From IMG/VR virus record IMGVR_UViG_2737471845_000010, positions 1 through 16,161 of that record: DNA of 16,161 bases; one strand, 5' to 3'. The stretch is from a virus (Duplodnaviria; Heunggongvirae; Uroviricota; Caudoviricetes). The position numbers and the translations under genes were made by a program. This document shows, piece after piece, positions 1-16,161 of the stretch (its first letter is position 1; each line of letters begins with the position of its first letter). The notes below the pieces were generated by a model that saw nothing but the letters and a program-made list of their open reading frames with translations, did not search any database and was not told the DNA's origin.

Positions 1-655
1 CCGCCACACGTGCAAACAGCACCTGCAGTTTACTGTAATCGGCCTCATTCGGTAACTGCCACTGGCTGGTACCAAACCAGTGCGAAGCCATGTTTTTCTT
101 TCCGGTGGCTTCAGCTATCTGTTTTGACGTTATCCCCAGTGATTCACGCGCATCACGAAAGTAAGCAATCAGCGGGGCCATTACGTGCTGCTTAAGCTCG
201 CGCCCTTTTGCTGCATAACCGTCACTTTTGAGCTGGTATGACCCCTGATAATGTTCAGCAAACAGAATGCGCTCTGTTGCCGGGAAATATGCCCGTAAAC
301 TTTCCTTATTGCACCCGTTCCAGCGTCCGGACGGCTTCGCCCAGATAATGTGGTTCAACACATTAAAACGTTCACGCATCATGAGTTCGGTGTCAGATGC
401 CAGTCGATGACCACAGAACAGGTAAAGACTTCCGGCAGGCTTCAGTACCCGCCAGAACTGCGCCAGACACTGGTCCAGCCATTGCAGGTAATCATCATCG
501 CCCTTCCACTGGTTATCCCAGCCCTCAGGCTTCACTTTAAAGTATGGCGGGTCTGTGACTATCAGATCGACGGAGTTTTCCGGTAAGGTCCGGATAAATT
601 CCAGGCAATCAGCGTTGATTAACTCACAACTGGATATTTTTACAGTATTAGCCAT
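1..655 (-). CDS. DNA methyltransferase with DPPY motif (N6-adenine/N4-cytosine class, phage Dam-like); 3' end lies beyond the window start
   Basis: Reverse-strand reading frame open from ATG at 655 to the window edge with no stops (not in the ORF track because it has no in-window stop). Translation begins MANTVKISSCELINADCLEFIRTLPENSVDLIVTDPPYF, showing the DPPY catalytic motif and an upstream SAM-binding-like segment. Plus-strand ORFs 10..195 and 350..586 are antisense to it. Confidence 0.85.
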   Translation of the reverse strand, partial: MANTVKISSCELINADCLEFIRTLPENSVDLIVTDPPYFKVKPEGWDNQWKGDDDYLQWLDQCLAQFWRVLKPAGSLYLFCGHRLASDTELMMRERFNVLNHIIWAKPSGRWNGCNKESLRAYFPATERILFAEHYQGSYQLKSDGYAAKGRELKQHVMAPLIAYFRDARESLGITSKQIAEATGKKNMASHWFGTSQWQLPNEADYSKLQVLFARVA

Positions 656-805
656 AGATCAGTAAGCACTTCTCTGATAGGCTCATACCGCTTTTGCGCA
701 AAGCAGATGGGCCTGAGGTTTGCTTGTGATCCCAACGCATGAGCAGATGGCTGGCAGGTGCCGCTAACACCCACCAGCCGCCCATTACCACAAATTAAAA
801 AGCCT

Positions 806-1003
806 TCACTGCGGAAGGCGTCTGTAACAACCGAACTGATAATCTGCCAGACCCGCCATAACAAGCTGGGTCAGTATTAACTGGCAGCGTTCGCGTGAAA
901 GGTAAGTATTCTGCGCAATTTCCCCGACGGTCGCCGGTTCGGTGACGCTTAATTCATTAAACACCACTCTGGCGGTTTTGGTCATATCCTGCTGTTTTAG
1001 CAT
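806..1003 (-). CDS. small (65 aa) putative winged-helix DNA-binding protein, possibly FaeA/PapI-like
   Basis: ATG at 1003 preceded by AGGGA about 8 nt upstream; ends at TGA 806..808. The sequence (…ATVGEIAQNTYLSRERCQLILTQLVMAG…) resembles a small wHTH regulator. The longer tracked ORF up to 1225 is read-through of AT-rich non-coding DNA. Confidence 0.45.
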   Translation of the reverse strand: MLKQQDMTKTARVVFNELSVTEPATVGEIAQNTYLSRERCQLILTQLVMAGLADYQFGCYRRLPQ

Positions 1004-1228
1004 GTCTTTTTCCCTATTCCGGTTAACGTGACATACCAATAACTCTTGTCTGAAAAGCCAGCAAGCTGAAAAACCGGTATTCGTAACCACCAGCGCGTTT
1101 AACGTACTGCACCACTTTTCGGGCACAAAAAACCCGCCTAACGGCGAGCTTAAGCTGTGTAGCGAAGTAACCACTCTTAACACACTAAGCGAAAAAATGC
1201 GGACCGCGTTAGTGATTTTTAGCAAGTT

Positions 1229-1259
1229 TTGCTTTATTTTTCCTACGTACAGTAAAAAT
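1229..1259 (+). promoter_or_regulatory. candidate sigma70-type promoter for the 336-aa gene (TTGCTT, ~18 bp spacer, TAAAAA)
   Basis: AT-rich divergent intergenic region 1004..1320; hexamers read by eye only. Confidence 0.25.
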
Positions 1260-1320
1260 AAGAAATCAATTCCAGCCAGGCTGGCTGAGTTAACACAGGT
1301 CTTAGAATGAGGGAACTTCT

Positions 1321-2331
1321 TTGTACGAAATACATTACGACGTTGAGTCTGAACAGCAAGCTTTTGAATTACTTGAACGTTACCTAAACGGACAAGCTTT
1401 ACCCGAAAAAATTAGTTTCAATGGTTGGCCAAGTCTAACCATCAGGTTGACTGGTGAAAAATTCAACAAATCACTCACACCTTCAGTTATGAAAGGATTT
1501 GTTGAAATGCAATCGCAACTCAATAAGTCTTATGCGCTAGCAAAGTTCGGAACTCCTGATGTCCGCAGGCTAACAAAAGAAGAACTTGATGCTTTAGAAA
1601 TTGAAGTTACAGTAGAGCAAGGTTCATCTCTTGTAGAGATTAACATTGATGGCTTCCTAAGCAAGCTTACGCACGAACTGGTAGGGAAAATGAACGCCAC
1701 AGAGATTGTATTTACGGTTCTCGGTGCTGCCGTTATATGGGGCGGTGTAACCGTCTTCAAACGCTATCTGGATAACCGTAAAGATACTCGGTTGGCTGAA
1801 ATTGCTAAAGAAGGCGACAAAGAACACCTACGCGCAATGCAAGTGATGACACAGGAGGAAACAAAACGCCTCCAAATCATCTCAGAAATGGTGGCTAAAA
1901 AACCTCTACTCGACAATATGGATCGAATGTCTTATGACGCTAAAACCACCATGGTTAAATCTTTCGTGCGTTCAGATTCAGCAGAAATTGACGGTGTCAC
2001 AATAGATTCAGAAACGGCAAAAGAGCTAGTAACAAATGCTCGTCGGCGCTCAGTTGAAATGAGAATAGACGGTATATACCGTATCGAAGAAGTGAATAAT
2101 ACCGACCCCGAAAGCTTCAAAGTTAAGGTTCGAAAGGTCGATTCTGATCAACGTTTGACCTGCGTTGTTCAGGATATATTCCTTGATGAATCAGGGAACA
2201 AAGAAGCCTTACAGCGAGCTGAATGGGAAAGAAAGCCTGTGCATTTAAGCATCAATGCCAAACACATTGATGGAGATATCAAGTCCGCCGTAATTTTACA
2301 TGTGAAAGATGTTGAAGATAAGCCCGAGTAA
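1321..2331 (+). CDS. hypothetical 336-aa protein with one central transmembrane segment; AT-rich inserted accessory gene of unknown function
   Basis: Long ORF with TTG start preceded by GAGGGAA; no in-frame ATG further upstream. Central hydrophobic stretch IVFTVLGAAVIWGGVTVF followed by a basic patch KRYLDNRK. The DNA is visibly more AT-rich than the flanking prophage genes. Convergent with Q. No recognisable catalytic motif. Confidence 0.7.
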   Translation: MYEIHYDVESEQQAFELLERYLNGQALPEKISFNGWPSLTIRLTGEKFNKSLTPSVMKGFVEMQSQLNKSYALAKFGTPDVRRLTKEELDALEIEVTVEQGSSLVEINIDGFLSKLTHELVGKMNATEIVFTVLGAAVIWGGVTVFKRYLDNRKDTRLAEIAKEGDKEHLRAMQVMTQEETKRLQIISEMVAKKPLLDNMDRMSYDAKTTMVKSFVRSDSAEIDGVTIDSETAKELVTNARRRSVEMRIDGIYRIEEVNNTDPESFKVKVRKVDSDQRLTCVVQDIFLDESGNKEALQRAEWERKPVHLSINAKHIDGDIKSAVILHVKDVEDKPE

Positions 2332-2350
2332 TCGGGCTGTCTGGTTTCAA
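2321..2350. terminator. hairpin AGCCCGA-gtaa-TCGGGCT overlapping the stop codon of the 336-aa gene, between convergent genes
   Basis: Perfect 7-bp inverted repeat at 2321..2338 followed by a moderately T-containing tract; lies between the 1321..2331 gene and the 3' end of Q. Confidence 0.4.
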
Positions 2351-2727
2351 GATTCCACTTCGGCATCCATTTCTAAACTTACATCCAACATACTCAGGCA
2401 ACCGTCGATAAACCCTTCAGCCATCTGTATCTCTATACGTATCAATTTCTCATCCTTCCAACGCGCCTTTGCAATCTTGCGCTTGGATATCCTGTATAAA
2501 TAATGTGCCACAAGAAGCGAATGCTCATAAGGCCTTTTTTGCTTTAAACAAGCAAGACAACCTTCAATAATTAATGCGTCACTATCTGAACAAGCCAGGC
2601 GTTTCTTACTGGTATAGGGCAGAAGTCCCTTAAACCCGGCAGCTATAGGTGAATAGTCCACACCCGAGCTATCACTAGCCGCCCATGCCCCCCAACGCTC
2701 AAGAACCATCTGAATATCACGCGCCAT
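2347..2727 (-). CDS. late-gene antiterminator Q (phage 21/82/DLP12 QuuD-like family)
   Basis: Translation MARDIQMVLERWGAWAA…IAAGFKGLL… matches my recollection of Q-family proteins of about 127 aa. ATG at 2727 preceded by GGTGG. Sits immediately downstream of rusA, as in the DLP12-type nin region. Confidence 0.8.
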   Translation of the reverse strand: MARDIQMVLERWGAWAASDSSGVDYSPIAAGFKGLLPYTSKKRLACSDSDALIIEGCLACLKQKRPYEHSLLVAHYLYRISKRKIAKARWKDEKLIRIEIQMAEGFIDGCLSMLDVSLEMDAEVES

Positions 2728-3088
2728 CGTTACCACCTGTAATTTCGTAAATCTTCACACCCAGCCGACCACCAGGTACGCGCTGACCGCGCACAATATT
2801 AATTTCATCAAACTGCTCGTCGTCGATAAGCAACCCCGCATGTGTCAGTGCATCCAGTGGTGCTTTCAGAATATTGTCCAGGTCACGACGGCGCTTATCC
2901 GGTGGCTCTGCAGTAATTTTTATTGCCAGCCTTCCGGACAGATTTAATTTCAGCCGCTGCTGGCGAACAATGAGCGCCACATCACGGCGATAACGCTCAC
3001 CGGCTTTTGATACAAAATATGTGCTGCCACGACGTCGCCAGTAGGTGTTTACCGTCGGCGGGTAAGGCAAAACAAACTCTATACGCAT
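2717..3088 (-). CDS. rusA: RusA-family Holliday junction resolvase
   Basis: Translation MRIEFVLPYPPTVNTYWRRRG…DKRRRDLDNILKAPLDALTHAGLLIDDEQ… carries the RusA hallmark segments (PPS/TVN…Y; RRRDLDN; DAL…AG…DD). RBS AGAGG 7 nt upstream of ATG 3088. Confidence 0.9.
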   Translation of the reverse strand: MRIEFVLPYPPTVNTYWRRRGSTYFVSKAGERYRRDVALIVRQQRLKLNLSGRLAIKITAEPPDKRRRDLDNILKAPLDALTHAGLLIDDEQFDEINIVRGQRVPGGRLGVKIYEITGGNDGA

Positions 3089-3100
3089 CAGTAACCTCTT

Positions 3101-4150
3101 TTACCCGAGCACGCCGGTTGCAAAGGCGTGATCAAGAAAACGAAAAATTAAATCAACCTGGGAACCATGCTTTTCTTCGAACGCCAGCGGATCCGCATGA
3201 AGTTCGTTGTGATGTTCCCGGCATAACGGTAGCGTGAAAATATCGTGGGATTTTGTTCCCATTCCGCCCTGACCATGACCAATCAGGTGATGGGGATCGT
3301 CGGCTGGCTTACCACAGCACGCACACGGCTGTGTCTTTACCCAGCGTGTATATTTCTCATTTATCCAACGGCGACGTTTAGGTCGCTTCATGAAAGATTC
3401 CGGAGACTCCGGATCTACGGCAATGCTGACCACCGTCTTTTCCTGTGGTGCGTTCTGTTGCTGGTGGGCGTGAGGTGGTAGCGCAATATTTTTTGTGCGC
3501 TGCTTCAGTATGCTGGTAGCTGTCTGCTCTCCCGGTACGATGTCGCTTTCGCGGTACAGGGAACGGATTTTTTCCACCGGTAATCCCAGCGAACGGCGTA
3601 ATACTGCTTCCGGTAGCGCGTCCGCCACCTGATTGCAGACCGCCCACCAGGATAATTCAGCCAGCGATAACTCCCGCTCCTGCGTGCCATTCATTGCGTG
3701 ACGGATGACGTCAATCATCCAGGCTGTCAGATTTTGATGAGCAAGTTGCTCTAGCGATTCCGAGGTCTGGTCGCGCAGTTGATTGTCACAGTGCCAGCAC
3801 AACACCATCGCGCCGGTACCGTAACGATGTATGACGATTTCACTGTGATGATAGTCACCATGAGGCCACTGGCAGGATTTGACATGACGCAGGAGCCAGT
3901 CAGATAGTGCACCAGCGCCGCCAGCAGCACGAATCACCCGCTCATCGCTGAAAAATGGCAGTAATGATTTATCTTCCGCCAGCGGCTGGCGAACGGCAGG
4001 AACAGCTCCGGACGGCAGACCGCGCATGTTTTTCGGTTCCGGCTCCACCAGCACTCGAGGGCTATGAAATACCTGCATGGATTCACGGCCAGGTTTAAGG
4101 ACCACCAGCCCAAGTTCCGGTACATGAACAGGTCGAAGCAATACCCGCAC
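3101..4150 (-). CDS. nin-region protein with C-terminal HNH-like zinc-binding motif (DUF968-like)
   Basis: 349-codon ORF; GTG start at 4150 preceded by GGAGG and coupled to the upstream gene's stop. C-terminus contains CACCGKPADDPHHLIGHGQGGMGTKSHD…PLCREHHNELH, a Cys/His-rich HNH-type pattern. Confidence 0.75.
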   Translation of the reverse strand: MRVLLRPVHVPELGLVVLKPGRESMQVFHSPRVLVEPEPKNMRGLPSGAVPAVRQPLAEDKSLLPFFSDERVIRAAGGAGALSDWLLRHVKSCQWPHGDYHHSEIVIHRYGTGAMVLCWHCDNQLRDQTSESLEQLAHQNLTAWMIDVIRHAMNGTQERELSLAELSWWAVCNQVADALPEAVLRRSLGLPVEKIRSLYRESDIVPGEQTATSILKQRTKNIALPPHAHQQQNAPQEKTVVSIAVDPESPESFMKRPKRRRWINEKYTRWVKTQPCACCGKPADDPHHLIGHGQGGMGTKSHDIFTLPLCREHHNELHADPLAFEEKHGSQVDLIFRFLDHAFATGVLG

Positions 4151-4151
4151 G

Positions 4152-4424
4152 TTACCTCCAGATGCGTTGCTGGAATGTGCGGGACGGACGCGGTGGGCGT
4201 TCAGAGTAAGGCAGTCTGACTGAGATTATCCAGTGTCGGAAGTCGAGGCTGAGGTCTTTCTGAAACTCGTAACCACGTCTGCGGTAGTTCTGAATTAGCC
4301 ACTCTGCCTGCTCTTCAGTGCATGGATCATGCTGGAACCAGTCGGTTTTAAATGCGCGCGAACGCCGCCCGTATCTGCTGGCAGGGGCGGTATCAGAATT
4401 GTGTAATTTGGTGTGGTGCGCCAT
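4152..4424 (-). CDS. hypothetical nin-region protein (start uncertain; may extend to TTG at 4478)
   Basis: ORF ends one base before the start of the HNH-like gene, suggesting translational coupling. First ATG is at 4424 (MAHHTKLHN…); the tracked ORF starts at TTG 4478. Neither start has a strong RBS. Confidence 0.45.
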   Translation of the reverse strand: MAHHTKLHNSDTAPASRYGRRSRAFKTDWFQHDPCTEEQAEWLIQNYRRRGYEFQKDLSLDFRHWIISVRLPYSERPPRPSRTFQQRIWR

Positions 4425-4605
4425 CTGTTTTCTCTGCTGGCGCAGCAGGTGCCAGTTGTTCAGGCTGGCGTGCGGCAATATTGTCTCTGATTTCTGTTGT
4501 CGTCAACCGCTTCTGTGCTTCCTCTCTTGATGAGTGAAGCGATTAACTTTACTATTTACTTAACAGGTTTTTCCTGTACCACGATTCCCTATACAGGAGG
4601 CCAGC

Positions 4606-4896
4606 ATGAGTGACGACAAAAAAATTGAGTTCAGCACCAGCGATGTGCTGAATGCTTTGTTGCATCGCCAGCAGAACATGCAACACCTGGCAACACAAGA
4701 AAACGTTGATAACCTCCGTCGTGAGATGGATACACGCCTGAACGTTATAGATAAGCGCCTCGACAAAATGGAGCAAGAAACCGAAAGACGGTTCAACAAG
4801 CTGGAAACCAAGTTTGATCGACTCCAGTGGTTTATTGTTGCTGCAGCTCTGGCTCTCATCTTCAAGGATTACATCTTCAGAATTATTGGTGCTTAG
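4606..4896 (+). CDS. small coiled-coil protein with C-terminal membrane anchor (96 aa), opposite in orientation to the surrounding operon
   Basis: Strong RBS AGGAGG 6 nt upstream of ATG. Charged heptad-like N-terminal region followed by the hydrophobic C-terminal stretch WFIVAAALALIF. Immediately followed by a terminator. Confidence 0.7.
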   Translation: MSDDKKIEFSTSDVLNALLHRQQNMQHLATQENVDNLRREMDTRLNVIDKRLDKMEQETERRFNKLETKFDRLQWFIVAAALALIFKDYIFRIIGA

Positions 4897-4901
4897 TAAA
4901 T

Positions 4902-4929
4902 CCGGCCCCGTTTTCGGGGCTGTCTTTTC
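4902..4929 (+). terminator. rho-independent terminator downstream of the 4606..4896 gene
   Basis: GC stem (G)GCCCCG-tttt-CGGGGC(C) followed by a T-rich tract (tgtcttttc). Confidence 0.6.
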
Positions 4930-5089
4930 ACATCTGCATCAGACTTTCCACCAACTTTTTATTGCCAGCTCCTGAAATCTGATCTACCTTATGCGCGTCA
5001 GAACGGCGCAATGCGCTCGCCTGTGATACGTTTACTTGTCATTGGTGGCAACAGATAACGGCAATTGTTGTTTCTGTTTGTTTCCTTCA

Positions 5090-5124
5090 AAAACCCCGGA
5101 CCGTCAATCCGGGGTTTTTGTTTG
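5090..5124. terminator. bidirectional rho-independent terminator (tR-like) ending the minus-strand early block
   Basis: AAAAACCCCGGA-ccgtcaa-TCCGGGGTTTTTG: perfect 7-bp GC-rich stem flanked by an A-run on one side and a T-run on the other, so it reads as an intrinsic terminator on both strands. Confidence 0.65.
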
Positions 5125-5204
5125 TTATCCCCAGCGGCAAATCGAATACACCATCAGCGCCACCGCCATCGCAATTCCTGCCGTTGTGAATGCTTCAGGC
5201 CAGG

Positions 5205-5567
5205 TCATCGTAAAATATCCTCCACGCTTATCAGTCCGTTTCGCTCCAGGTAGTCCATCACCTTATCCGGCAGTTTGCAGTCCGGCTTCGCTTTCCTCAG
5301 TTGCCAGGTTAACTGCTTTACCTGCATGGTTAACTCGTCGACCAGACGCTGATACCCCACTGGTTTGTATTCATAAAATTTACCAACTGGCGCTGCTGCC
5401 AGCGATTGCAGTGCAATTTCCAGAACAGCAATATCCATCTTATATGCGCGAATGAGGTCATGGTCGATTGTACCTGGTATGCACAGTCTCTGTGATTCAA
5501 TAGTCTCCTCTGCGTGGGCTATTAACTGCTCTTTGGTAAACCGTTCTTCTTTGGTCAAAGTCGCCAT
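5205..5567 (-). CDS. hypothetical early protein (120 aa)
   Basis: ATG at 5567 overlaps the stop of the upstream small gene; GGAAGAG upstream. No recognised motif. Confidence 0.65.
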
Positions 5568-5568
5568 T

Positions 5569-5742
5569 TTACTCTTCCACTTCGTCTTTTATTTCGTAAA
5601 TTGAGTAATTGCAGTGATTAAAGAAAACATCAATTGCCTCGTTTTCTATTTCCTCAGGAGTCGCGTCATCATCCACTTCAAATACATCTTCACGCACGCC
5701 ACCAACAATCCTCGTTTCGATAACTATTTTGAATTTTCGCAT
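5569..5742 (-). CDS. small acidic hypothetical protein (57 aa), below the ORF-track size cutoff
   Basis: Hand translation [65 protein letters not shown] upstream of ATG 5742; fills the gap between neighbouring genes. Confidence 0.5.
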
Positions 5743-5832
5743 TGTCTTACCACCATTTCTGGCAGTCTCCTGATGTTCTGAGGGTGCAGAAATCCCTCCG
5801 GTTAAGGATTTTATTTTCGATAATAATATTGG

Positions 5833-6189
5833 TTATTCTGGTCTGGTTTTTGTCGCCCTGCGTATCCGCGCTTTCACATTGCGCTCAATCTGAATTAGCT
5901 TTTCTATATTTTTACGTCTTTCCCGTTCCTCCTGACGCAATTGTTTTACATCATCTGCCAGTCTGGTTTCTCTTTTCGCCACAGAGAGCATCCAGTCAAA
6001 TGGCTCCACAACTGCACCGCAGATTTTACAACGGACATGACGCTCTTTTTCATCAACCCTGACAGAGGCGTGATGGCAATATGGTTTCTCCGATGGCTCA
6101 TAAAGAAAATTAACCTGATTACGTGGGTCATCCTCTTTTACCGGAAATAAAACAATATTACTTAACTCATCTTCTGGTTTTATTTCCAC
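5833..6189 (-). CDS. hypothetical protein with zinc-ribbon-like motif (CHH…C-x2-C)
   Basis: GTG start at 6189 preceded by AAAGGAGA; the longer tracked ORF (to 6264) would overlap the upstream gene. Contains PYCHHASVRVDEKERHVRCKICGAV. Confidence 0.6.
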   Translation of the reverse strand: MEIKPEDELSNIVLFPVKEDDPRNQVNFLYEPSEKPYCHHASVRVDEKERHVRCKICGAVVEPFDWMLSVAKRETRLADDVKQLRQEERERRKNIEKLIQIERNVKARIRRATKTRPE

Positions 6190-6190
6190 G

Positions 6191-6520
6191 TCACTCTCCT
6201 TTGATGCGAATACCTGCAACACGCAGTGCATGCTCCAAATCAGCCAGATAAAGCCAGCGCCCATGCTCTTTGGGCATCATGACATATTGCTCATCGGCAT
6301 TTATCGGATGACCCCTTCGAAGGTCATAGCAAGTCGGTAAATGCACTGCCCTTGCTTCCAGCTCTGCAATGCGTTTATCTCTGGCTTCCAGTTCGTCCAG
6401 TAACGCCAGCACAACCTGCGGTGTGACTTTCATGCGAAACGCCAGCAGTTTCTGAGGTGTGGACACTGTTTTTATTGCCTCTGCCACATCACGCAACGCC
6501 TGGTTGTTAATCTGATTCAC
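6191..6520 (-). CDS. hypothetical early protein with coiled-coil segment (109 aa)
   Basis: GTG start at 6520 with GAGGTG RBS; start overlaps the stop of the upstream gene (GTGA). LLDELEARDKRIAELEA heptad-like segment. Confidence 0.65.
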   Translation of the reverse strand: MNQINNQALRDVAEAIKTVSTPQKLLAFRMKVTPQVVLALLDELEARDKRIAELEARAVHLPTCYDLRRGHPINADEQYVMMPKEHGRWLYLADLEHALRVAGIRIKGE

Positions 6521-6831
6521 TGCGTCACCTCACGATTCCTCAACCAGATACAAACCGGTCCATCCTCGGTGTCATGAATGGAGCCAATAAACCAGCCCTC
6601 ACCCTCTGGTCGTTCAGGTTCCCATGCGGAAATATCGGGACCATCTGCATCCGGGTTAAAATCATCTTCATCCATACTGCGAATAGTCCACTGAAGATTA
6701 TTTGCCTTCATCCAGGCGTTAAATTCTTCCGTCGAAATATACTCCCGGCCATCACAAAATTTTTCATATTCAGGATGCGTCCAGCAGCCATATTCATCAC
6801 GTTCTACCGGCAGTTCTTTGATTTCAATCAT
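6517..6831 (-). CDS. hypothetical acidic early protein (104 aa)
   Basis: Internal ATG at 6831 preceded by GGAG at suitable spacing; the first ATG of the tracked ORF (6858) has no RBS. Confidence 0.6.
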   Translation of the reverse strand: MIEIKELPVERDEYGCWTHPEYEKFCDGREYISTEEFNAWMKANNLQWTIRSMDEDDFNPDADGPDISAWEPERPEGEGWFIGSIHDTEDGPVCIWLRNREVTQ

Positions 6832-6844
6832 AACATTAACTCCA

Positions 6845-7021
6845 TTAAGATAATGCAAAACAAATTAACCACACCACGACAACCGATGCTATTAACACCC
6901 TGATTGCAAACAGCGGGCTGATATGTCGAAAAGGATTTTCCCAGATAATAAAAGCCGCTGCCAGAAATGCACTGATAAGTAAAACAATAACAAACAGCTC
7001 AATTTTGATTATCCAGAACAT
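6845..7021 (-). CDS. small hydrophobic membrane protein (58 aa)
   Basis: Two predicted hydrophobic helices (IIKIELFVIVLLISAFLAAAFII and LFAIRVLIASVVVVWLICFAL); start overlaps the upstream stop. Confidence 0.45.
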   Translation of the reverse strand: MFWIIKIELFVIVLLISAFLAAAFIIWENPFRHISPLFAIRVLIASVVVVWLICFALS

Positions 7022-7023
7022 AT

Positions 7024-7320
7024 TCACTGCATCGCCTTCTGTAAAATAACCGCATGCCCCAGCTTCTCCGCCAGCGCCAGTTCTGCCTTAGCACCCGCCG
7101 ACCGCTGCCAGCCATTCAGCATGTAAATCGCATCCACGCAACGTATCATCGCCATGCAGATATCCATGTACTGCGACTGAGTCAGTCCGTCCGGAAGTAC
7201 TGCCGGGTTTAAGACGGTATGCCCTTCCCGTTTCAGTTCCTCTTCTGCCTTGTGGAACGCCTCACGGTTGAAATTTTTATACCCGGTCATCGGACCGGCG
7301 ATATAAACCCTCACCCTCAC
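7024..7320 (-). CDS. DUF4406-like protein (nucleoside 2-deoxyribosyltransferase-like fold)
   Basis: GTG start with strong AGGAGGTG RBS, overlapping the upstream stop. N-terminal RVYIAGPMTG…FN…AF motif typical of this family. Confidence 0.7.
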   Translation of the reverse strand: MRVRVYIAGPMTGYKNFNREAFHKAEEELKREGHTVLNPAVLPDGLTQSQYMDICMAMIRCVDAIYMLNGWQRSAGAKAELALAEKLGHAVILQKAMQ

Positions 7321-7709
7321 TCAATCACCTCCTGAAAATTACCCCGATAGAACGCCAGTACACGTTGCATTGATTCGCTGTTACGGCATTCCCGGCAAAT
7401 TATGTTCATGTCTCTGTCGTAGCGACGGATTTCACCATCAGGTAACTTCCGGACCAGTGCCGGGTCAGCTTTCTTCGGAGTTTTACACCACGCCTGATAC
7501 GCCTGTTCTGATACAAAAACACCGTGTTTACCGGATATGTACAAATCACCACAAGCAACCACATCCACAAGACAACGTCTGACCGTATGCCAGCCCGCCC
7601 CCGTTGCCCTCTCCAGTTGCGACATCGTCATGCGTTTGTTCCTGTGTATCAGCCCGATAATTCGCGCCTTCAGTTCTTCCCGCTGTTCGGGTGTAAAAAC
7701 GCTTGCCAT
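7317..7709 (-). CDS. hypothetical protein with predicted HTH segment (130 aa)
   Basis: AGGAGG RBS upstream of ATG 7709; segment MTMSQLERATGAGWHTVRRCL resembles a helix-turn-helix. Confidence 0.7.
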   Translation of the reverse strand: MASVFTPEQREELKARIIGLIHRNKRMTMSQLERATGAGWHTVRRCLVDVVACGDLYISGKHGVFVSEQAYQAWCKTPKKADPALVRKLPDGEIRRYDRDMNIICRECRNSESMQRVLAFYRGNFQEVIE

Positions 7710-7723
7710 GAGTCCTCCTGAAA

Positions 7724-8470
7724 TTACTTCACAACCCTTAAATGGCTGACATTTGAACGCCAGCTCTCCCAGTTAAAATTCACCCAGCGACCACCGTTCA
7801 TGGTCATGCGGTCCATCACGCGCTCGCCAAGCAGCGTATTCATTGCCGTATGGTTCAGGTTCGTCAGCATCCCGACGCTGTGCATCGAGGCTGTTCTGCG
7901 ATCGACTATCTGGTTCAGTGTGACCTGTTCGTTACGCGTATCCCGCTGCATACCAATTTCATCCAGGACAAGCAGGTCAACTTCACACAACCCCTGCAAA
8001 AATTTTTCGCCCGAGTTTTTGTTGTCGTAGTTGCCGTGTAACGCCAGCATCACATCCGCCACCGTCACCACAATCACGCTGCGACCTTTCGCCAGAAGAT
8101 GGTTGCCAATGGCTGCTGCCAGATGATTCTTTCCGGTACCCGGCTTACCGCTGAACACGAAATTTGTGCATCCGGTCATCATTTCTTCCGCGATGGATTT
8201 TGCCTGGCTCAGCGCGTGGCGTTGGCCATCGTTCTTCACCTGGTAATTCGCAAACGAACACTTCTGGTGCAACAGTTGGATACCGGAACGCTTCATAATT
8301 TTCTCCACCCGGATCTGGCGATTCTGGCGGTTAATTTCCTCACTACGCTTTCGCCCTTCTGCAAGCTGCCACTCTCGCCACTCGTCCACTGTCCGGTACG
8401 GCGCGGTTACATGCTGCGGGGCCAGCTTACGGATACGCTCAAGAACACCACCTGCCGCAATATTTTTCAT
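7724..8470 (-). CDS. DnaC/IstB-like AAA+ replication protein (helicase loader; Rac YdaV-like)
   Basis: Walker A motif GKPGTGKNHLAAAIG and Walker B-like LLVLDEIG; positioned immediately downstream of the replication initiator gene. Confidence 0.9.
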   Translation of the reverse strand: MKNIAAGGVLERIRKLAPQHVTAPYRTVDEWREWQLAEGRKRSEEINRQNRQIRVEKIMKRSGIQLLHQKCSFANYQVKNDGQRHALSQAKSIAEEMMTGCTNFVFSGKPGTGKNHLAAAIGNHLLAKGRSVIVVTVADVMLALHGNYDNKNSGEKFLQGLCEVDLLVLDEIGMQRDTRNEQVTLNQIVDRRTASMHSVGMLTNLNHTAMNTLLGERVMDRMTMNGGRWVNFNWESWRSNVSHLRVVK

Positions 8471-8476
8471 AACCCG

Positions 8477-9424
8477 TTACCCCCTGAATCCCGGCGGAAT
8501 TTCGGTATCCGGTTCAGAAATGTGATTCACACAACGCTGTACAGGCGAACGCCCCAGGCGGATGACCAGTTCGTCCCATTTTTCACGAAGCTTTGACGGG
8601 CTCATGACGTTTCTTACCCAGAATGGATCCCGTTGTACCCGACTGAACATTTCGCAAATTTGCCTGTGAGTTCTGCCATCCAGCACCCGCATTGTGCGCA
8701 CGTCATTGGCCCATGCTGTCCAGTTGGGTTCTTTCGGTCGCGTAATCTCGCCATCATCGCTGGCAGCCTGTTCGTAAAGACTCACGATTCGCCCCCAGAT
8801 CCACTGCGCACACGTCAAATCTTCCTGGCTGCCCCACTGGCGTTTTTTCGCACTGAACACAACCGCGTCAGGATGTCGGGTTAAAAAATCCTGTTCAGCC
8901 GTCTCCTCGTCCGGTTGCGAAGCTTCCGGACGAAAAGATCTTTTATCTGACGGATCAGGTTTTAATACTGACGGATCGGGGCCAACCATCGCCCCCCTAT
9001 CCGGCTGTTTTTTATCAATGGTTGATCCATCAAAATTTGAGGGGTCAACCGTTGAGGGGGCAATATTTGACGGGTCATTTTTTGCCTGGCTAATTTTTCT
9101 TTTCGGTTTATATGCCTCACGCGCCGCCGCTGCTGCTGCTTCGAGTTTTTCCACATTAAGACGGTAGATATTGCTTTCATTACGCCCACCGACCTTACGT
9201 TCCTCCTTCGTCAGCCAGCCGTTCTTTTCCAGTTCCGCTATCGCCGCTTTAACCGTTGATTCACTCTTTGCCCCAATCTGACGACGAATGGTCTCCACTG
9301 CAGGCCATGACACACCTTCGTCATTGCTGTAATCTGCAAGGCGAGCCATTACTGCCACCCTGGATAAGATCATGCCGGTGAAGGCACACCCTTCCCAGAC
9401 AAGACCATGAAGCTTGCTGCTCAT
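8477..9424 (-). CDS. phage replication initiation protein (lambda O-like functional analogue) with internal iteron origin
   Basis: GGAG RBS upstream of ATG 9424. N-terminal HTH-like segment; central repetitive DPSN/DPSV/DGST protein segment encoded by the iterons; followed by the DnaC-like gene. Confidence 0.85.
   Translation of the reverse strand: MSSKLHGLVWEGCAFTGMILSRVAVMARLADYSNDEGVSWPAVETIRRQIGAKSESTVKAAIAELEKNGWLTKEERKVGGRNESNIYRLNVEKLEAAAAAAREAYKPKRKISQAKNDPSNIAPSTVDPSNFDGSTIDKKQPDRGAMVGPDPSVLKPDPSDKRSFRPEASQPDEETAEQDFLTRHPDAVVFSAKKRQWGSQEDLTCAQWIWGRIVSLYEQAASDDGEITRPKEPNWTAWANDVRTMRVLDGRTHRQICEMFSRVQRDPFWVRNVMSPSKLREKWDELVIRLGRSPVQRCVNHISEPDTEIPPGFRG
8946..9115. repeat. candidate origin of replication: about five iterons (consensus TGA(C/G)GG(A/G)TC) plus adjacent AT-rich tract, inside the initiator gene
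   Basis: Copies at approximately 8948..8956, 8969..8977, 9038..9046, 9052..9060 and 9068..9076 (TGACGGATC, TGACGGATC, TGAGGGGTC, TGAGGGGGC, TGACGGGTC), followed by the AT-rich stretch 9077..9115. Architecture parallels lambda ori within gene O. Confidence 0.6.
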
Positions 9425-9447
9425 AAAAAACTCCGAACACCGTGCTT

Positions 9448-9873
9448 TTAGTGCATCACCACAGCATTTCCTGCCGGGCCACCACGATTCATCTGATTGA
9501 AACCGGCGATTGCCACTGCGACAAAATCATCAGCGTCTCTCACCAGTCGTTCCCGCGTCTCCACCAACTCCCGAAAATAGACTGAACTGTGGCTGCGCAT
9601 CCGGGCCACCAGCAGAGGTGGCATTGCTTTTTCGATAGCCGGTAACAACGCCTGAATTTTTTTAACCGCATCAGGAGTGTCTTTCTCTACCCAGCGGAAA
9701 ATTTTCTGGGTATTGCGAGCCAGGGCTTCCGGATGGCTATCGTCATACAGTTCAGGAAACGTCATACCCAACTCAAAATAAGCCTGGGTTATTCCAGCTG
9801 CTGGAACTTTTTCACCGTCCGGATGCGCCCAGACATTCATCGCCATGCGGATGTGTTCATGCTTGATTTTCAT
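9448..9873 (-). CDS. YdaT-like (CII-position) regulatory protein
   Basis: Begins MKIKHEHI, as I recall for the Rac YdaT family. ATG overlaps the stop of the Cro-like gene (ATGA). Position corresponds to cII in lambdoid layouts. Confidence 0.7.
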   Translation of the reverse strand: MKIKHEHIRMAMNVWAHPDGEKVPAAGITQAYFELGMTFPELYDDSHPEALARNTQKIFRWVEKDTPDAVKKIQALLPAIEKAMPPLLVARMRSHSSVYFRELVETRERLVRDADDFVAVAIAGFNQMNRGGPAGNAVVMH

Positions 9874-10085
9874 GAATCATTCTTTCCTTCGTTCGAGGTG
9901 CTATCCTGCTTCTTGTAAAGTTCTGGGTTGTATTTCAATTCACCGTTAGTAATTTCATCCAGCTCCATTGCTCGAAGTTTGGGAATAACTGCTTTCCACC
10001 GCACAACAGCCACATGTGAAATTCCAAGAGCCTCAGCTACTAGTCGCTTTTTTTTGAAATAGCGCAGAACATCATCTTTGAACAT
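9870..10085 (-). CDS. Cro-like repressor (DicC/YdaS-like small HTH protein)
   Basis: AGGAGAG RBS upstream of ATG 10085. 71 aa with HTH (RLVAEALGISHVAVVRWKA). Divergent from the CI-like repressor gene across an operator-bearing intergenic region. Confidence 0.8.
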   Translation of the reverse strand: MFKDDVLRYFKKKRLVAEALGISHVAVVRWKAVIPKLRAMELDEITNGELKYNPELYKKQDSTSNEGKNDS

Positions 10086-10114
10086 AAAACTCTCCTGTTA
10101 TTTCGAGCAGGAGG

Positions 10115-10176
10115 GTAACAATAGTTACATAGCAATGTCAACCATAGCAACATCACTTGGTAGTAACATTGGTTAC
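10115..10176. promoter_or_regulatory. OR-like operator region: two GTAAC-N4-GTTAC palindromes between the divergent cro-like and repressor genes
   Basis: GTAACaataGTTAC at 10115..10128 and GTAACattgGTTAC at 10163..10176, the latter directly abutting the repressor ATG. A TTGACA hexamer is present on the minus strand in this interval. Confidence 0.6.
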
Positions 10177-10851
10177 ATGAAAAACACTATCAGCGAACGT
10201 ATTCGGAATCGTCGAAAAGACGTTGGATTAACCCAACAGCAGGTTGCGAAAGCAATCGGCATATCTCGTGTATCCGTAACAAAATGGGAAAATGGCTCTT
10301 CAAAACCTGACGGTGAGAATTTACATCTACTGTCAAAATTGCTTTCCAAATCTCCTGAATGGATTCTTTATGGAAAGGACGGTCACGATAAAACCGATGA
10401 TCTGCGTCTGAATCAGTACCTTTACATTAGTGACAACATCGCCCGGTTGCCCGTTTTAACGTGGGAACAGGCTGGTTATTGGGATATGAGTTGCCCAGTA
10501 ACCGAGATTCCTGGTATTAAGAATTGGGTTGATGTCATGACAAAAACCGCTGAAAACTCTTTTTTATTGCATGTTGAGGGAGATGCGATGACAAACTCTA
10601 ACGGCCTCCCAACCATCCCCGACGGATCTACCGTGCTGATCACACCATGCTCAAGTAACATTAGAGAACTGGCGGGGAAAATAATCTTAATCCAATTGGA
10701 AGGAACGCCAAACGTAACACTAAAAAAAGTTGCGATTGACGGACCAAACATCTATCTGTTGTCACTGAATCCGCTTTACAAACCCATCGAACTGAATGGC
10801 GGTTACACCATTAAAGGTAAAGTTTCACAAATACATCAATACTTAGATTGA
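10177..10851 (+). CDS. CI-like prophage repressor (N-terminal XRE-type HTH plus C-terminal S24 LexA-like domain)
   Basis: HTH segment LTQQQVAKAIGISRVSVTKWENG. C-terminal domain aligns by eye with lambda CI (…EGDAMT…; …VTLKKV…). Start chosen at ATG 10177; the tracked ORF begins at TTG 10078 and would overlap the operators and the cro RBS. Confidence 0.85.
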   Translation: MKNTISERIRNRRKDVGLTQQQVAKAIGISRVSVTKWENGSSKPDGENLHLLSKLLSKSPEWILYGKDGHDKTDDLRLNQYLYISDNIARLPVLTWEQAGYWDMSCPVTEIPGIKNWVDVMTKTAENSFLLHVEGDAMTNSNGLPTIPDGSTVLITPCSSNIRELAGKIILIQLEGTPNVTLKKVAIDGPNIYLLSLNPLYKPIELNGGYTIKGKVSQIHQYLD

Positions 10852-10855
10852 GTCA

Positions 10856-10883
10856 GAACCCGCATTCATTGCGGGTTTTTTAT
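10856..10883 (+). terminator. rho-independent terminator after the repressor gene
   Basis: AACCCGCA-ttcatt-GCGGGTT stem-loop followed by TTTTTT. Confidence 0.7.
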
Positions 10884-10912
10884 GCCCTCAAACGTACCTT
10901 TTGCAACATCGT

Positions 10913-10939
10913 ATTGACTCATGTGGTAACTCTTGTTAC
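10913..10939 (+). promoter_or_regulatory. OL/PL-like element: TTGACT hexamer followed by the third operator palindrome GGTAACtcttGTTACC
   Basis: Same GTAAC-N4-GTTAC half-sites as the two OR sites (10925..10938), located at the head of the plus-strand early-left operon. The -10 element is not clear. Confidence 0.5.
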
Positions 10940-11259
10940 CTTAACAACATACCAACCCACTCCGCCCCACAGAATGCAGGGCAATACTTCGAGTTACCAG
11001 GCAGTGGTCAGGGGGTAAGTAGCCAGCCCGAGGCGTAAGAACATGACGGCAGGGTTCAACTTTAACTATGCAGCAGGTTTTTGTTCCGCTACCCCGGCGT
11101 TAAGGGGAAACAGAGGATTTCTCAGTGGGCGAAGTCAAACATCAGAATGGAAGGCATCCTGGGCTCTGCAAAGAAGCAGCAATGGCGCTTTATATTGACA
11201 TCAGCGCCATTGCCGGACAGCTAAGAATTATCAGGGCGGTAACTAAGCGGTATGCGCCT

Positions 11260-11460
11260 TTACTTCAGAAAGTCTCTTGTGAGTGCACCGAAGATATTGT
11301 CAACGATTTCGTCATCGAACTGCGAAGACTCATCTTCAGTTACAAGGTGACCACAATTTTTGCAGATGGCTCCCGCGAAACTGTCAGAGCCCTGCGGCTT
11401 AAAGGATGTGTCAAAGACTTCGCCACCACATTCTGGGCAAGAAAACTTGATTGTATTCAT
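11260..11460 (-). CDS. small zinc-ribbon protein (66 aa), antisense to the early-left operon
   Basis: Two CxxC pairs (CPECGG … CKNCGH) with an acidic C-terminus; GAGAGGAAA RBS about 6 nt upstream of ATG. The overlapping plus-strand ORF 11125..11481 is the alternative reading and contains several rare AGA/AGG codons. Confidence 0.45.
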   Translation of the reverse strand: MNTIKFSCPECGGEVFDTSFKPQGSDSFAGAICKNCGHLVTEDESSQFDDEIVDNIFGALTRDFLK

Positions 11461-11552
11461 AACCAATTTCCTCTCGAGTAACAGACCCCTCAGAGGATAC
11501 CACCTCGCCTGACGTGGTTAAAAGCAGGCAACGCTAACCACAAGGAGCCGAC

Positions 11553-11750
11553 ATGCAGAAACGAGAACCCGTCATCATCGCGCCAGACTATACCGATGAT
11601 GAACTTTATGAGTGGATGCGCCAGAAAATTAATGCAGCGCAGGATTTGAAATGGGCCAATGAAGCTAGGGCTAAGCAGGCTGAAAATCTGTCCGCTCTGG
11701 AGCAGGATATCACCAGGCTGGAAAAAGCAGCGGCATTAAGCATTGCCTGA
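11553..11750 (+). CDS. small hypothetical early-left protein (65 aa)
   Basis: RBS AAGGAG 6 nt upstream of ATG; coiled-coil-like C-terminus. Confidence 0.65.
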   Translation: MQKREPVIIAPDYTDDELYEWMRQKINAAQDLKWANEARAKQAENLSALEQDITRLEKAAALSIA

Positions 11751-11793
11751 ATGATTACATACCCACGTTAATAGCTAACCAACGAGGCTAATA

Positions 11794-12201
11794 ATGGAAT
11801 TTAAAGATTTACCAAAAGAAATCCAGACAATTGCTGCAACGACTCTCGGTGATAGTCTGGTGAAAATTGACCCGGCATACACCAAAAAAGAAACCATCGA
11901 TAATATGGTTCGTAATGTGCGCAATGCTTTTTCTGGGCTATATGGTTCTGATAATCAAAAGCAGGAAAGCGATGTTAATAAACGGGTAATTTCTGTTTGC
12001 GTGAATGGCCATGTTCTTTCATCAATCAAAACAGAAACGGCGACAGTCTTCGATTGCCTTTGCATTGTACAGAGCCTTGTTGATGCCCTGTTTCGTTCAG
12101 TGAATTTAGAAAATGACGCAAATCTGCGAGGGCGCACAATAGCACATCCATATGCACATACTTTAGGCTCTGTGGATATCAAAGATCCCACAAATCTTTA
12201 A
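11794..12201 (+). CDS. hypothetical early-left protein (135 aa)
   Basis: RBS-like ACGAGG upstream of ATG; 3' end overlaps the convergent minus-strand gene by about 23 bp. Confidence 0.6.
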   Translation: MEFKDLPKEIQTIAATTLGDSLVKIDPAYTKKETIDNMVRNVRNAFSGLYGSDNQKQESDVNKRVISVCVNGHVLSSIKTETATVFDCLCIVQSLVDALFRSVNLENDANLRGRTIAHPYAHTLGSVDIKDPTNL

Positions 12202-12412
12202 TGAAATAGTTAACGCGAATTGTACTTGCTCTTTCAGTTGCTTTCAGAATACGCGTTGAAACTGCTGGCGGTAATTTGGTATTCCATTTATTAAAATCAT
12301 GCCCGGGAAAGTACTCTTCGAAAATACTTTTAACTGCAGACTCGCCTATTGAAATGCTGCTTACCATGCGATTTTGATAAAGGCATTTAGCAATAAGAGT
12401 TGATTTTAACAT
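12179..12412 (-). CDS. hypothetical 77-aa protein encoded opposite to the early-left operon
   Basis: Strong RBS AGGAGGG 4 nt upstream of ATG 12412; convergent 3' overlap with the 11794..12201 gene. Confidence 0.55.
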   Translation of the reverse strand: MLKSTLIAKCLYQNRMVSSISIGESAVKSIFEEYFPGHDFNKWNTKLPPAVSTRILKATERASTIRVNYFIKDLWDL

Positions 12413-12747
12413 TCACCCTCCTGAAGGTTGGTAATTAAGGAGTTCTCCACGGGTGGGGTGGAGTGCGTGCGCCGGACACGGGTGAGCATCCGGCACTGAC
12501 AGTTTACTGAAAGGATATTTCTCTGAAAAGTCAGAGCATAACGCGAAAGCGCACGGCGAGGTTGCTGGTTCATAGATAGCCTGTCGTTAAATTTTCGTCG
12601 ACCGTGCGCTTCCGGTTGTGGCACCCCGCGAAATGGCGCGGCGGTAAGTATGGCGGGGTTATCCTTACCCCCACTGGTGGCACCGGGTTGTCAGGTTGAC
12701 CATACGCCTGAGTGACAACCCCGCCACAACATCTCCATGTTGAGGCT

Positions 12748-12802
12748 TGTGTGAGACCTTTGGCGGCATCAGTTTAATTGCTGGCTGATGTCCGCCCTTT
12801 TT
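12748..12802 (+). ncRNA. dicF: DicF-like small RNA (cell-division inhibitor sRNA family) ending in an intrinsic terminator
   Basis: Sequence …CCTTTGGCGGCATCAGTTTAATTGCTGGCTGATGTCCGCCCTTTTT closely resembles my recollection of E. coli DicF (GGCGG…AUCAGUUU…CCGCCCUUUUU). Long imperfect hairpin GGCGGCATCAG / CTGATGTCCGCC plus T-run. Located directly upstream of a dicB homologue, as in Qin. 5' boundary is approximate. Confidence 0.55.
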
Positions 12803-12985
12803 AAAGTGAATTTTGCGATGCGGTGAATGCGGCTAAGCGCACGCGGAACAGTTAAAAAGGCCAGTTGACTTCCGTATTGGTTCTTATGGGTGGGTTCTCT
12901 GTATCCGGCGTTAATTGTTAACTGGTTAACGTCACCTGGAGGCACCAGGCACCGTATCACAAAATTCATTGTTGAGGACGCGATA

Positions 12986-13174
12986 ATGGAAACGTTATTA
13001 CCAAACGTTAATACGTCTGAAGGTTGTTTTGAAATCGGTGTCAGAATCAGTAACCCTGTATTTACTGAAGATGCCATTAATAAGAGAAAACACGAACGGG
13101 AGCTATTAAATCAAATATGCATTGTTTCAATGCTGGCCCGTTTACGCCTGATGCAAAAAGGACGCTGCCAATGA
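12986..13174 (+). CDS. dicB: DicB-like cell division inhibitor (62 aa)
   Basis: Translation METLLPNVNTSEGCFEIGVRISNPVFTEDAINKRKHERELLNQICIVSMLARLRLMQKGRCQ is near-identical to the E. coli DicB sequence as I recall it. GAGGA RBS; the tracked ORF's upstream extension is not needed. Confidence 0.8.
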   Translation: METLLPNVNTSEGCFEIGVRISNPVFTEDAINKRKHERELLNQICIVSMLARLRLMQKGRCQ

Positions 13175-13374
13175 ATACAGCATTTGCACTCGTTCTGACA
13201 GTTTTTCTTAATACAGGCGAACCAGTCGATCTTGTTATTGGTATACATGACTCAATGAAAGAATGCATGGCTGCCGCAGCGGAACAGAAAATTCCCGGCA
13301 ACTGTTATCCGGTTGATAAAGTTATTCGCATGGACAATAACGAAATCCCGGCAGGACTTAAAACAGCACCGTAA
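13171..13374 (+). CDS. ydfD: YdfD-like small membrane/lysis protein (67 aa)
   Basis: ATG overlaps the dicB stop (ATGA). N-terminal hydrophobic helix AFALVLTVFL, then …CMAAAAEQKIPGNCYPVDKVI…, resembling Qin YdfD from memory. Same gene order as Qin dicB-ydfD. Confidence 0.6.
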   Translation: MNTAFALVLTVFLNTGEPVDLVIGIHDSMKECMAAAAEQKIPGNCYPVDKVIRMDNNEIPAGLKTAP

Positions 13375-13454
13375 TTAATATCCGGTTTCATTTTTATATG
13401 CCAGCAATGGCAGGGATTTGTTCACCATTAAATCTGTAATGAGGTTAAAACAAA

Positions 13455-15917: not shown

Positions 15918-15983
15918 TGTTCACCCCTGATCGCCGTCCCCGAATTATATTGGCGGCGGTCATGCTGTAAGGCACGTGACCAC

Positions 15984-16161
15984 ATGTACGAATTAACTCT
16001 ATCGCCAGCAGAGATTCAAGAGATCACGAAATACGAGCGATACACAAAACAGCAACACCAGTTAAGGCTGCACGGTATCCCATTTGTAATCGGTCCTAAA
16101 AACGAACCAATAGTTCTTCGCAGGGATATTCCACACGGACTGACTACGATGCCAAAAGCAC
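15984..16161 (+). CDS. hypothetical protein, 5' portion only (continues beyond window end)
   Basis: ATG at 15984 opens a frame with no stop to the window end (MYELTLSPAEIQEITKYERYTKQQHQ…); weak RBS. Confidence 0.4.
   Translation, partial: MYELTLSPAEIQEITKYERYTKQQHQLRLHGIPFVIGPKNEPIVLRRDIPHGLTTMPKA

Follow-up and report, generated by a model that had tools for sequence, protein, structure and literature searches.

A mobile cassette between Q and the late-promoter region of a lambdoid prophage encodes a candidate single-protein anti-phage factor

In phage lambda, rexAB occupies the slot directly after the cI repressor gene. A repressor-adjacent slot is also held by bstA of the Salmonella phage BTP1 (PMC8585504). 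Two further prophage defence genes, Tab of Pseudomonas phage JBD26 (83 aa; PMC10884400) and Tai of phi80 and its relatives (phi80 orf63; PMC11364771), lie on the opposite strand and have their own promoters, and hotspots of prophage defence were described in 2022 (PMC9122126). Here, we report on a cassette found in a lambdoid prophage, namely in positions 1 to 16,161 of the IMG/VR record IMGVR_UViG_2737471845_000010 (this whole stretch of 16,161 nucleotides is referred to below as the window). The cassette carries one gene, coding for a protein of 336 aa, and is placed between the gene of the antiterminator Q and the putative late-promoter region. Taken as a whole, the locus is best explained as a Q-junction cassette encoding a candidate single-protein anti-phage factor, an explanation that we hold to be slightly better than an even bet.

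Like Tab and Tai, the cassette is a single gene opposite to the late genes, located in a variable "moron" locus and probably having its own promoter; a gene of the Tab/Tai type, being on the opposite strand and having its own promoter, can therefore be expressed from a prophage whose late genes are silent. However, Tab and Tai sit near the terminase genes together with a cognate anti-defence gene, whereas the cassette sits between Q and pR' with no conserved partner. Tab and Tai were also considered as possible identities of the protein and rejected: their sequences are unrelated, and a tblastn search of the 336-aa protein against 50,697 phage records missed phi80. As for rexAB and bstA, relatives of the 336-aa gene in many other phages hold the same slot, 3' of and co-directional with cI. 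Finally, as in the hotspots described in 2022, a fixed backbone junction is empty here in some phages and holds exchangeable cargo in others, a large part of which is known or candidate defence; unlike in those hotspots, the phages are lambdoid with a PF06530-type Q, and the junction is that of the Q stop and the late-promoter block.

The inserted cassette and the late-promoter block

The limits of the cassette are given by an empty site. In the Stx2 phage 1720a-02, sequence corresponding to window positions 601-1220 (88.7% identity) is contiguous with sequence corresponding to 2366-2722, and the Q stop codon directly abuts the sequence that matches the window up to 1220. Thus, the insert spans approximately 1221-2346. 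The final few Q codons of the window differ from those of the 1720a-02 Q, and homology between the two genes starts at window position 2366. Relatives have 1108-1143 bp between the backbone block and the Q stop. The features of the junction are the following:

1120..1220, minus strand: backbone block outside the insert, with a putative Q-dependent late promoter/qut site, a short leader and an intrinsic terminator
About 1127-1150, minus strand: tR'-like hairpin, predicted free energy (dG) -14.2 kcal/mol, followed by UUUUUU
1221..2346, plus strand: inserted cassette (5' region, coding sequence and terminator); the match with the empty-site phage is lost after 1220 and regained at 2366
1221..1320, plus strand: cassette 5' region, kept among cassette-bearing loci, including ATGAGGGA and then the TTG start
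1229-1234 (TTGCTT) and 1253-1258 (TAAAAA), plus strand: candidate weak sigma-70 promoter, read from the sequence
1272-1288: inverted repeat, scoring as a minus-strand terminator-like site (dG -9.5)
1321..2331, plus strand: coding sequence of the 336-aa protein, with a TTG start and a Shine-Dalgarno sequence, GAGGGA, at 1309-1314, read from the sequence
2321..2338, plus strand: cassette terminator hairpin found by a terminator scan, overlapping the stop codon TAA (2329-2331), with a weak T-tract after it
2347..2736, minus strand: Q antiterminator (PF06530, Pfam E=4.5e-50), convergent with the cassette

The first-pass annotation of this DNA had proposed a gene of visibly low GC content, independently acquired and standing in the place where pR'/qut normally adjoins Q. 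All three points hold. A windowed check gave a GC content of 0.416 for the insert against 0.479 for the window, with 0.371 at third codon positions (GC3), which puts the insert at the 0.7th percentile of 1126-bp sliding windows; phage 1720a-02 lacks the cassette at an otherwise contiguous backbone, and what stands between Q and pR'/qut in the window is a separately acquired cassette. The open reading frame (ORF) of 336 aa and its convergence with Q were likewise borne out: RefSeq annotates the same frame as the hypothetical protein WP_042973071 in a prophage 99.9% identical across 1004-2350, and the stop codons of the two genes are separated by 15 nt. On the other hand, the whole of 1004..1320 had been assigned to the gene as its own AT-rich upstream region, and this is right only for 1221-1320 (GC 0.38), while 1004-1220 is conserved phage backbone (GC 0.456) that includes the late-promoter region. 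E. coli PapRG-04-4 matches the window at 99.9% identity for 1004-2350 and at 96.6% over the first 4.4 kb.

The backbone block of about 100 bp (approximately 1120-1220) is kept in all 33 of the 33 distinct Q-linked relatives despite their differing left flanks, and it is also present in the empty-site phage; inside it, at 1198-1219, lies the invariant motif TGCGGACCGCGTTAGTGATTTT. Judging by its sequence, the block fits the expectation for a putative pR'/qut, a short leader and tR', while a strict promoter scan did not locate the -35 and -10 elements of pR'. The lambdoid late promoter is known to be constitutively active and terminated just downstream (PMC7547250). In the window, the late-promoter region is displaced by about 1.1 kb from Q, yet it is intact; Q being a trans-acting factor, control of the late genes would be expected to persist despite this displacement. 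It is also important to note that the 22-nt motif TGCGGACCGCRYTARTSMTTTT (1198-1219) holds the near-palindrome GCGG-N-CCGC and is invariant beside the Q stop or the cargo in every examined phage with the same Q type. It could serve as the Q-binding/qut element, or as an anchor at which recombination exchanges the cargo.

With its own 5' region, Shine-Dalgarno sequence, weak TTG start and terminator, the cassette points against Q and the late operon. It would be transcribed in the lysogen from its own promoter, independently of Q, and once the prophage is induced, early transcription passing rightward through Q would run against it. The TTG start after ATGAGGGA is kept in most Q-linked members of the family, and its conservation suggests a deliberately low level of translation. 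At the other end of the gene, the fold of 2312-2352 has a dG of -16.7 kcal/mol (z -4.0). An Rfam search of the window returned no family.

Cargo of the junction and relatives of the gene

A scan of IMG/VR for the backbone motif, covering this Q/pR' type only and with duplicates kept, gave at least 119 stretches, 89 of which had enough flank and a recognisable Q and were judged. A site was called empty when fewer than 100 bp separated the backbone block from the Q stop. Among the matches listed, at least 32 of these junctions were empty, at least 24 held a member of the present family and at least 33 held other cargo, the main types of which, among the same matches, were all on the strand opposite Q. 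Phage 1720a-02, the cdtI phage and PhiR40_1 provide examples in which the same junction is empty or differently filled. The Q-stop/late-promoter junction is a recombination hotspot for cargo in lambdoid phages with this Q type. The following other cargo was found there:

443-aa KAP NTPase: PADLOC PDC-S20, E=1e-177
305-aa protein with a small membrane partner: PADLOC PDC-S42, E=4e-30
271-aa protein: TIR-TM, E=1e-57
147-aa SRA-domain protein (PhiR40_1 type): mREase_II (methyl-directed REase), E=1.5e-26
Pair of the cdtI phage, a 323-aa DUF6731 protein and a 149-aa membrane protein: locus L004, 3088-4476; also L166, L156 and L194
367-aa and 184-aa proteins: loci L205, L147, L134, L106, L169 and L145
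356-aa protein: loci L163 and L176

The last three types (323+149, 367+184 and 356 aa) had no match or only a marginal one in PADLOC and Pfam. Two of these three pair with a small multi-pass membrane protein, and they are further candidate defence cargo. No description of a hotspot at the Q stop and late promoter was found in the literature searched, which left out Brenes & Laub 2025 (Cell Host Microbe 33:1004). The junction can be recognised by sequence (a Q stop beside the TGCGGACCGC...TTTT block), and in lambdoid and Stx-type phages it lends itself to a search for further cargo. In related phages the late promoter driving the Shiga toxin genes immediately follows this site, and the cargo may also affect Q and late-gene control.

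Relatives of the gene are not confined to this junction. Among the 98 loci with a relative that we examined, a convergent PF06530 Q was the downstream neighbour in 49, while in at least 20 the gene was found directly 3' of, and co-directional with, a CI/LexA-like repressor gene (HTH_3 plus Peptidase_S24, or Phage_CI_repr). These repressor-adjacent cases include Salmonella, E. coli JNE132847, the Moraxella phage Mcat17 and a metagenome-assembled genome of Treponema (26% identity). In a P2-like phage the gene follows the C repressor and abuts gpD, and in Mu-like phages it stands just ahead of the lysis genes. No neighbour was conserved across these contexts, and therefore the gene stands alone. 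Such a context strongly suggests an accessory or defence role in which the gene is expressed in the lysogen. In a Pantoea prophage with the same Q-adjacent gene (locus L014, 7617-10000), an AAA_15/AAA_21 ATPase (485 aa) and a 308-aa protein are found just past Q; these two may be a separate defence-like pair.

The protein matches phrog_6191, a family of unknown function, with E=8.4e-143 over residues 3-334 of 336. Its close relatives form 82 clusters, all annotated as hypothetical, and a profile search retrieved 1,402 clusters at 50% identity (507 at E<=1e-30), nearly all of 320-350 aa. The hosts of the family are Enterobacterales, Halomonas/Vreelandella, Acinetobacter, Moraxella, Pasteurella and Treponema. 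The Q-linked gene is present over most of its length in 86 of 5,426 complete E. coli genomes (about 1.6%). In comparisons with homologues at 94%, 86% and 85% protein identity (loci L015, L002 and L058), the ratio of non-synonymous to synonymous divergence (dN/dS) was 0.02-0.04 with dS of 1.35-3.0, and therefore this is a real gene under strong constraint. Synonymous sites are saturated while the proteins stay 85-94% identical, which is an unusually strong constraint for prophage cargo.

The absence of a recognisable motif, noted at first from the letters alone, was confirmed by profile searches, as Pfam, NCBIfam and PADLOC all gave no match. Pfam run on all 37 aligned members returned sub-threshold chance matches only; in PADLOC-DB v2, which includes BstA, Rex, Abi, PD-, Rst_ and the PDC candidates, no family matched at E up to 10, and PDB sequences searched with a profile yielded no match at E under 0.04. 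Searching full texts by accession was equally fruitless. The family is, however, listed in one place. In Table S10 of DefensePredictor (DeWeirdt, Mahoney & Laub, Science 2026, PMC13092281), WP_000357056.1 appears among 1,041 predicted clusters as a "predicted novel defense gene", with a mean log-odds of 6.55 (range 4.5-9.7) against a cut-off of 4. This protein is an 86% identical homologue, whose gene in E. coli APEC O78 likewise stands next to Q, in the same position. The initial description of the gene as undescribed is therefore to be narrowed: no member has a characterised function, but the family already figures as a prediction. The validated systems of similar size DS-17, DS-19, DS-34 and DS-40 were considered as possible identities and dismissed, their sequences being unrelated.

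Several independent lines thus argue strongly that the gene is a mobile, lysogeny-associated accessory gene. An anti-phage function, which rests on association and on machine-learning prediction, appears reasonably probable. The accessory or defence role proposed from the outset gains from the hotspot shared with PADLOC families, from the relatives in the cI operon of unrelated temperate phages and from the DefensePredictor listing, while the function itself stays a predicted one. If the protein proves protective, a widespread family with no known domain and with a mostly unmatched fold will be added to the prophage defence repertoire.

Predicted structure of the protein and its possible modes of action

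The AlphaFold2 model of the 336-aa protein is compact, with a predicted local distance difference test score (pLDDT) of 86.5 and a predicted template modelling score (pTM) of 0.86. A 30%-identical homologue was modelled with the same order of secondary-structure elements (pLDDT 86.7, pTM 0.72). The parts of the protein are the following:

1321..1680, plus strand: N-terminal alpha/beta domain, aa 1-120 (AlphaFold secondary structure)
1696-1965, plus strand: five-helix region, aa 126-215 (AlphaFold model)
1705..1758, plus strand: conserved hydrophobic helix, aa 129-146, IVFTVLGAAVIWGGVTVF, the first of the five helices
2056..2310, plus strand: OB-fold beta-barrel at the C-terminus, aa 246-330; the conserved basic motif N-A-R-R-R (aa 239-243) lies ahead of it

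According to the invariant columns of the alignment, the most conserved motif of the family is L-T-P-S-V-M-K-G-F (aa 52-60), followed by G-S-S at aa 101-103; Y253 and E301-W302 in the C-terminal region do not vary either. With 13 K/R against 19 D/E, the N-terminal domain has an acidic net charge, and it had no structural counterpart among the matches listed. The C-terminal barrel resembles OB-fold proteins, namely the B subunits of AB5 toxins, SilF/CusF and SSB/PriB/RPA, in fold only (4-17% identity). The protein belongs to none of the OB-fold Pfam families, and its other 250 residues have no counterpart among the structural matches listed.

Such an architecture allows us to outline how the product might work. 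Most likely, it would act against phages as a single protein, by abortive infection or by superinfection exclusion. A component of the infecting phage, either nucleic acid or protein, would be recognised by the OB and N-terminal domains; recognition would free the normally buried hydrophobic helix for insertion into the membrane or for oligomerisation, and with the membrane compromised the infection would abort. We put forward this sequence of sensing and helix release as a tentative inference of rather low probability. It appears unlikely, although conceivable, that the family goes further and represents a new class of single-protein abortive infection, with a compact cytoplasmic sensor made up of a novel N-terminal domain and an OB-fold barrel, and with a colicin/Bax-style switch from soluble to membrane form, present in lambdoid, P2-like and Mu-like phages from Enterobacteria to spirochaetes and always in lysogen-expressed slots; in that case, the junction would be an unmapped defence hotspot, in which the antisense orientation turns the cargo off on induction.

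The outline above takes the hydrophobic helix to be buried, while the first-pass annotation had it as the span of a single-pass membrane protein. What stands of that claim is the conserved stretch of 18 hydrophobic residues. Its Kyte-Doolittle mean over 19 residues is 1.89, and over 247 relatives the median is 1.77, with 72% at or above 1.6. The spanning itself is made doubtful by the compactness of both models, by the break that both introduce into this helix at a conserved W-G-G, and by covariation of the helix flanks with the N-terminal domain. The strongest covarying pairs connect the N-terminal domain to both flanks of the helix (92-128 and 15-149) and to the C-terminal domain (105-253, a Tyr/Phe swap); the signal is weak, as mean-field direct coupling analysis of 247 sequences (effective number, Neff, 168) is noisy and has hub positions, and it gives weak support only. 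On balance, a buried helix is at least as likely as a membrane-spanning one.

A membrane reading nevertheless deserves attention. The 336-aa protein would then be a constitutive single-pass protein of the inner membrane, with the N-terminal domain in the periplasm and the helical and OB parts in the cytoplasm, and it would block the entry of superinfecting genomes at the membrane, in the manner of superinfection-exclusion proteins such as P22 SieA, T4 Imm and HK97 gp15. Apart from the conservation of the helix, this reading draws on the bias of positive charge past it (in relatives, 4.8 K+R after the helix against 2.0 before) and on the acidity of the N-terminal domain, which is the polarity needed for the export of an N-tail; the genomic context speaks for it as much as for the helix-release outline. 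Yet a folded N-terminal domain of 125 residues would have to be exported by a protein that has no signal peptide, both models are single compact bodies with the helix broken, and 28% of the relatives fall below the usual threshold of 1.6. Moreover, the covariation linking the N-terminal domain with both helix flanks and with the C-terminal domain would be impossible for domains on different sides of a membrane, with the reservation that, at an Neff of 168, this signal is weak. Pfam, NCBIfam and PADLOC revealed no homology to exclusion proteins such as SieA, Imm and gp15. We regard the membrane reading as rather unlikely.

The OB fold itself invites another interpretation, with no membrane step: a cytoplasmic nucleic-acid-binding protein that would interfere, in the manner of BstA, with the replication or DNA processing of incoming phages or prophage competitors. 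The conserved N-A-R-R-R motif and the aromatic residues that flank the barrel are in line with this, as are the compact predicted fold and the relatives in the cI-adjacent slot, where BstA is also found (PMC8585504). However, a conserved and fully hydrophobic helix would be left unexplained; the PADLOC model of BstA was not matched, and none of the 37 members matched SSB, PriB or tRNA_anti in Pfam. We consider this interpretation quite improbable.

Returning to the preferred explanation of a cassette encoding an anti-phage factor, we should list what weighs against it. The 94 transcription units that the DefensePredictor study cloned do not include WP_000357056.1, which is neither named nor analysed there, and only 42 of these 94 units (45%) protected, while 55% failed (PMC13092281). 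Searches of Pfam, NCBIfam, PADLOC and PDB sequences revealed no homology to known defence proteins or effector domains, and a catalytic motif was looked for with none found. PDC-S20 and PDC-S42 are themselves candidates and not validated systems, and the survey of the junction, with its duplicates, speaks for one Q/pR' type. Because a strict promoter scan gave no consensus promoter within 1221-1320, the promoter of the cassette and its expression in the lysogen are inferred only. The triggered-insertion step is an analogy. Lastly, a very low dN/dS with saturated dS is unusual for a protein engaged in an arms race, and it would fit action on a conserved host component.

Some of these points favour a gene with no role in defence at all. 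It might be a lysogenic-conversion or host-fitness factor, or it might regulate the prophage's own life cycle, for example, through read-through antisense RNA that damps leaky expression of Q and stabilises lysogeny. The stop codon of Q is 15 nt from the end of the gene, whose terminator has only a weak T-tract; the dN/dS of 0.02-0.04 suggests interaction with a conserved partner; morons of lambdoid late regions include the non-defence genes iss and bor (iss is present in locus L002), and the failure rate of predicted defence units points in the same direction. Still, an antisense role does not need a protein of 336 aa conserved from Enterobacteria to Treponema, nor does it explain the gene's position after cI or its presence in P2-like and Mu-like phages, which have no Q. 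The other occupants of the junction resemble defence genes, and the protein has neither a secretion signal nor a lipobox, unlike typical surface conversion factors. Overall, a non-defence role seems improbable to us.

Neighbouring genes and further observations in the window

The genes around the cassette are all on the minus strand. Besides Q, they are the following:

806..1003, minus strand: small winged-helix protein of 65 aa (phrog_331; "TrmB family" in RefSeq), a backbone gene and the first one past the tR'-like terminator
2717-3088, minus strand: RusA
3101-4150, minus strand: DUF968 protein

Past the left end of the window, related prophages continue with an N6/N4 DNA methyltransferase, a tRNA and holins. 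The winged-helix gene and the N6/N4 methyltransferase (locus L001, 14606-15652; PADLOC MTase_II, E=6e-154) recur together in Stx2, cdtI and ECOR-derived phages, and the pair looks like an orphan, late-expressed methylase module. The idea that the cassette is a restriction partner of this methyltransferase was rejected because the methyltransferase module belongs to the backbone: the pair occurs in the empty-site phage, which is free of the cassette. Moreover, the cassette also adjoins holins or other genes with no methyltransferase, and neither a nuclease motif nor a nuclease match was seen in Pfam or among the structural matches listed.

The prophage's own CI-like repressor (HTH_3 plus Peptidase_S24) is encoded at 10078-10851 on the plus strand. 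About 0.9 kb 3' of it, on the same strand, there is a low-GC ORF of 135 aa (11794-12201; GC 0.40, GC3 0.32), for which Pfam gave no match. This may be a spurious ORF or a further accessory gene, the latter in a repressor-distal slot. The PapRG-04-4 relative has different genes where this ORF aligns. At its C-terminal end, a long ORF of 820 aa (13455-15917, plus strand) encodes an exonuclease domain of the Rv2179c-like 3'-5' type (E=5e-68). Its counterpart in the related prophage, the "exonuclease", is only 81% identical, and therefore the window is a mosaic relative of that prophage and not the same one.

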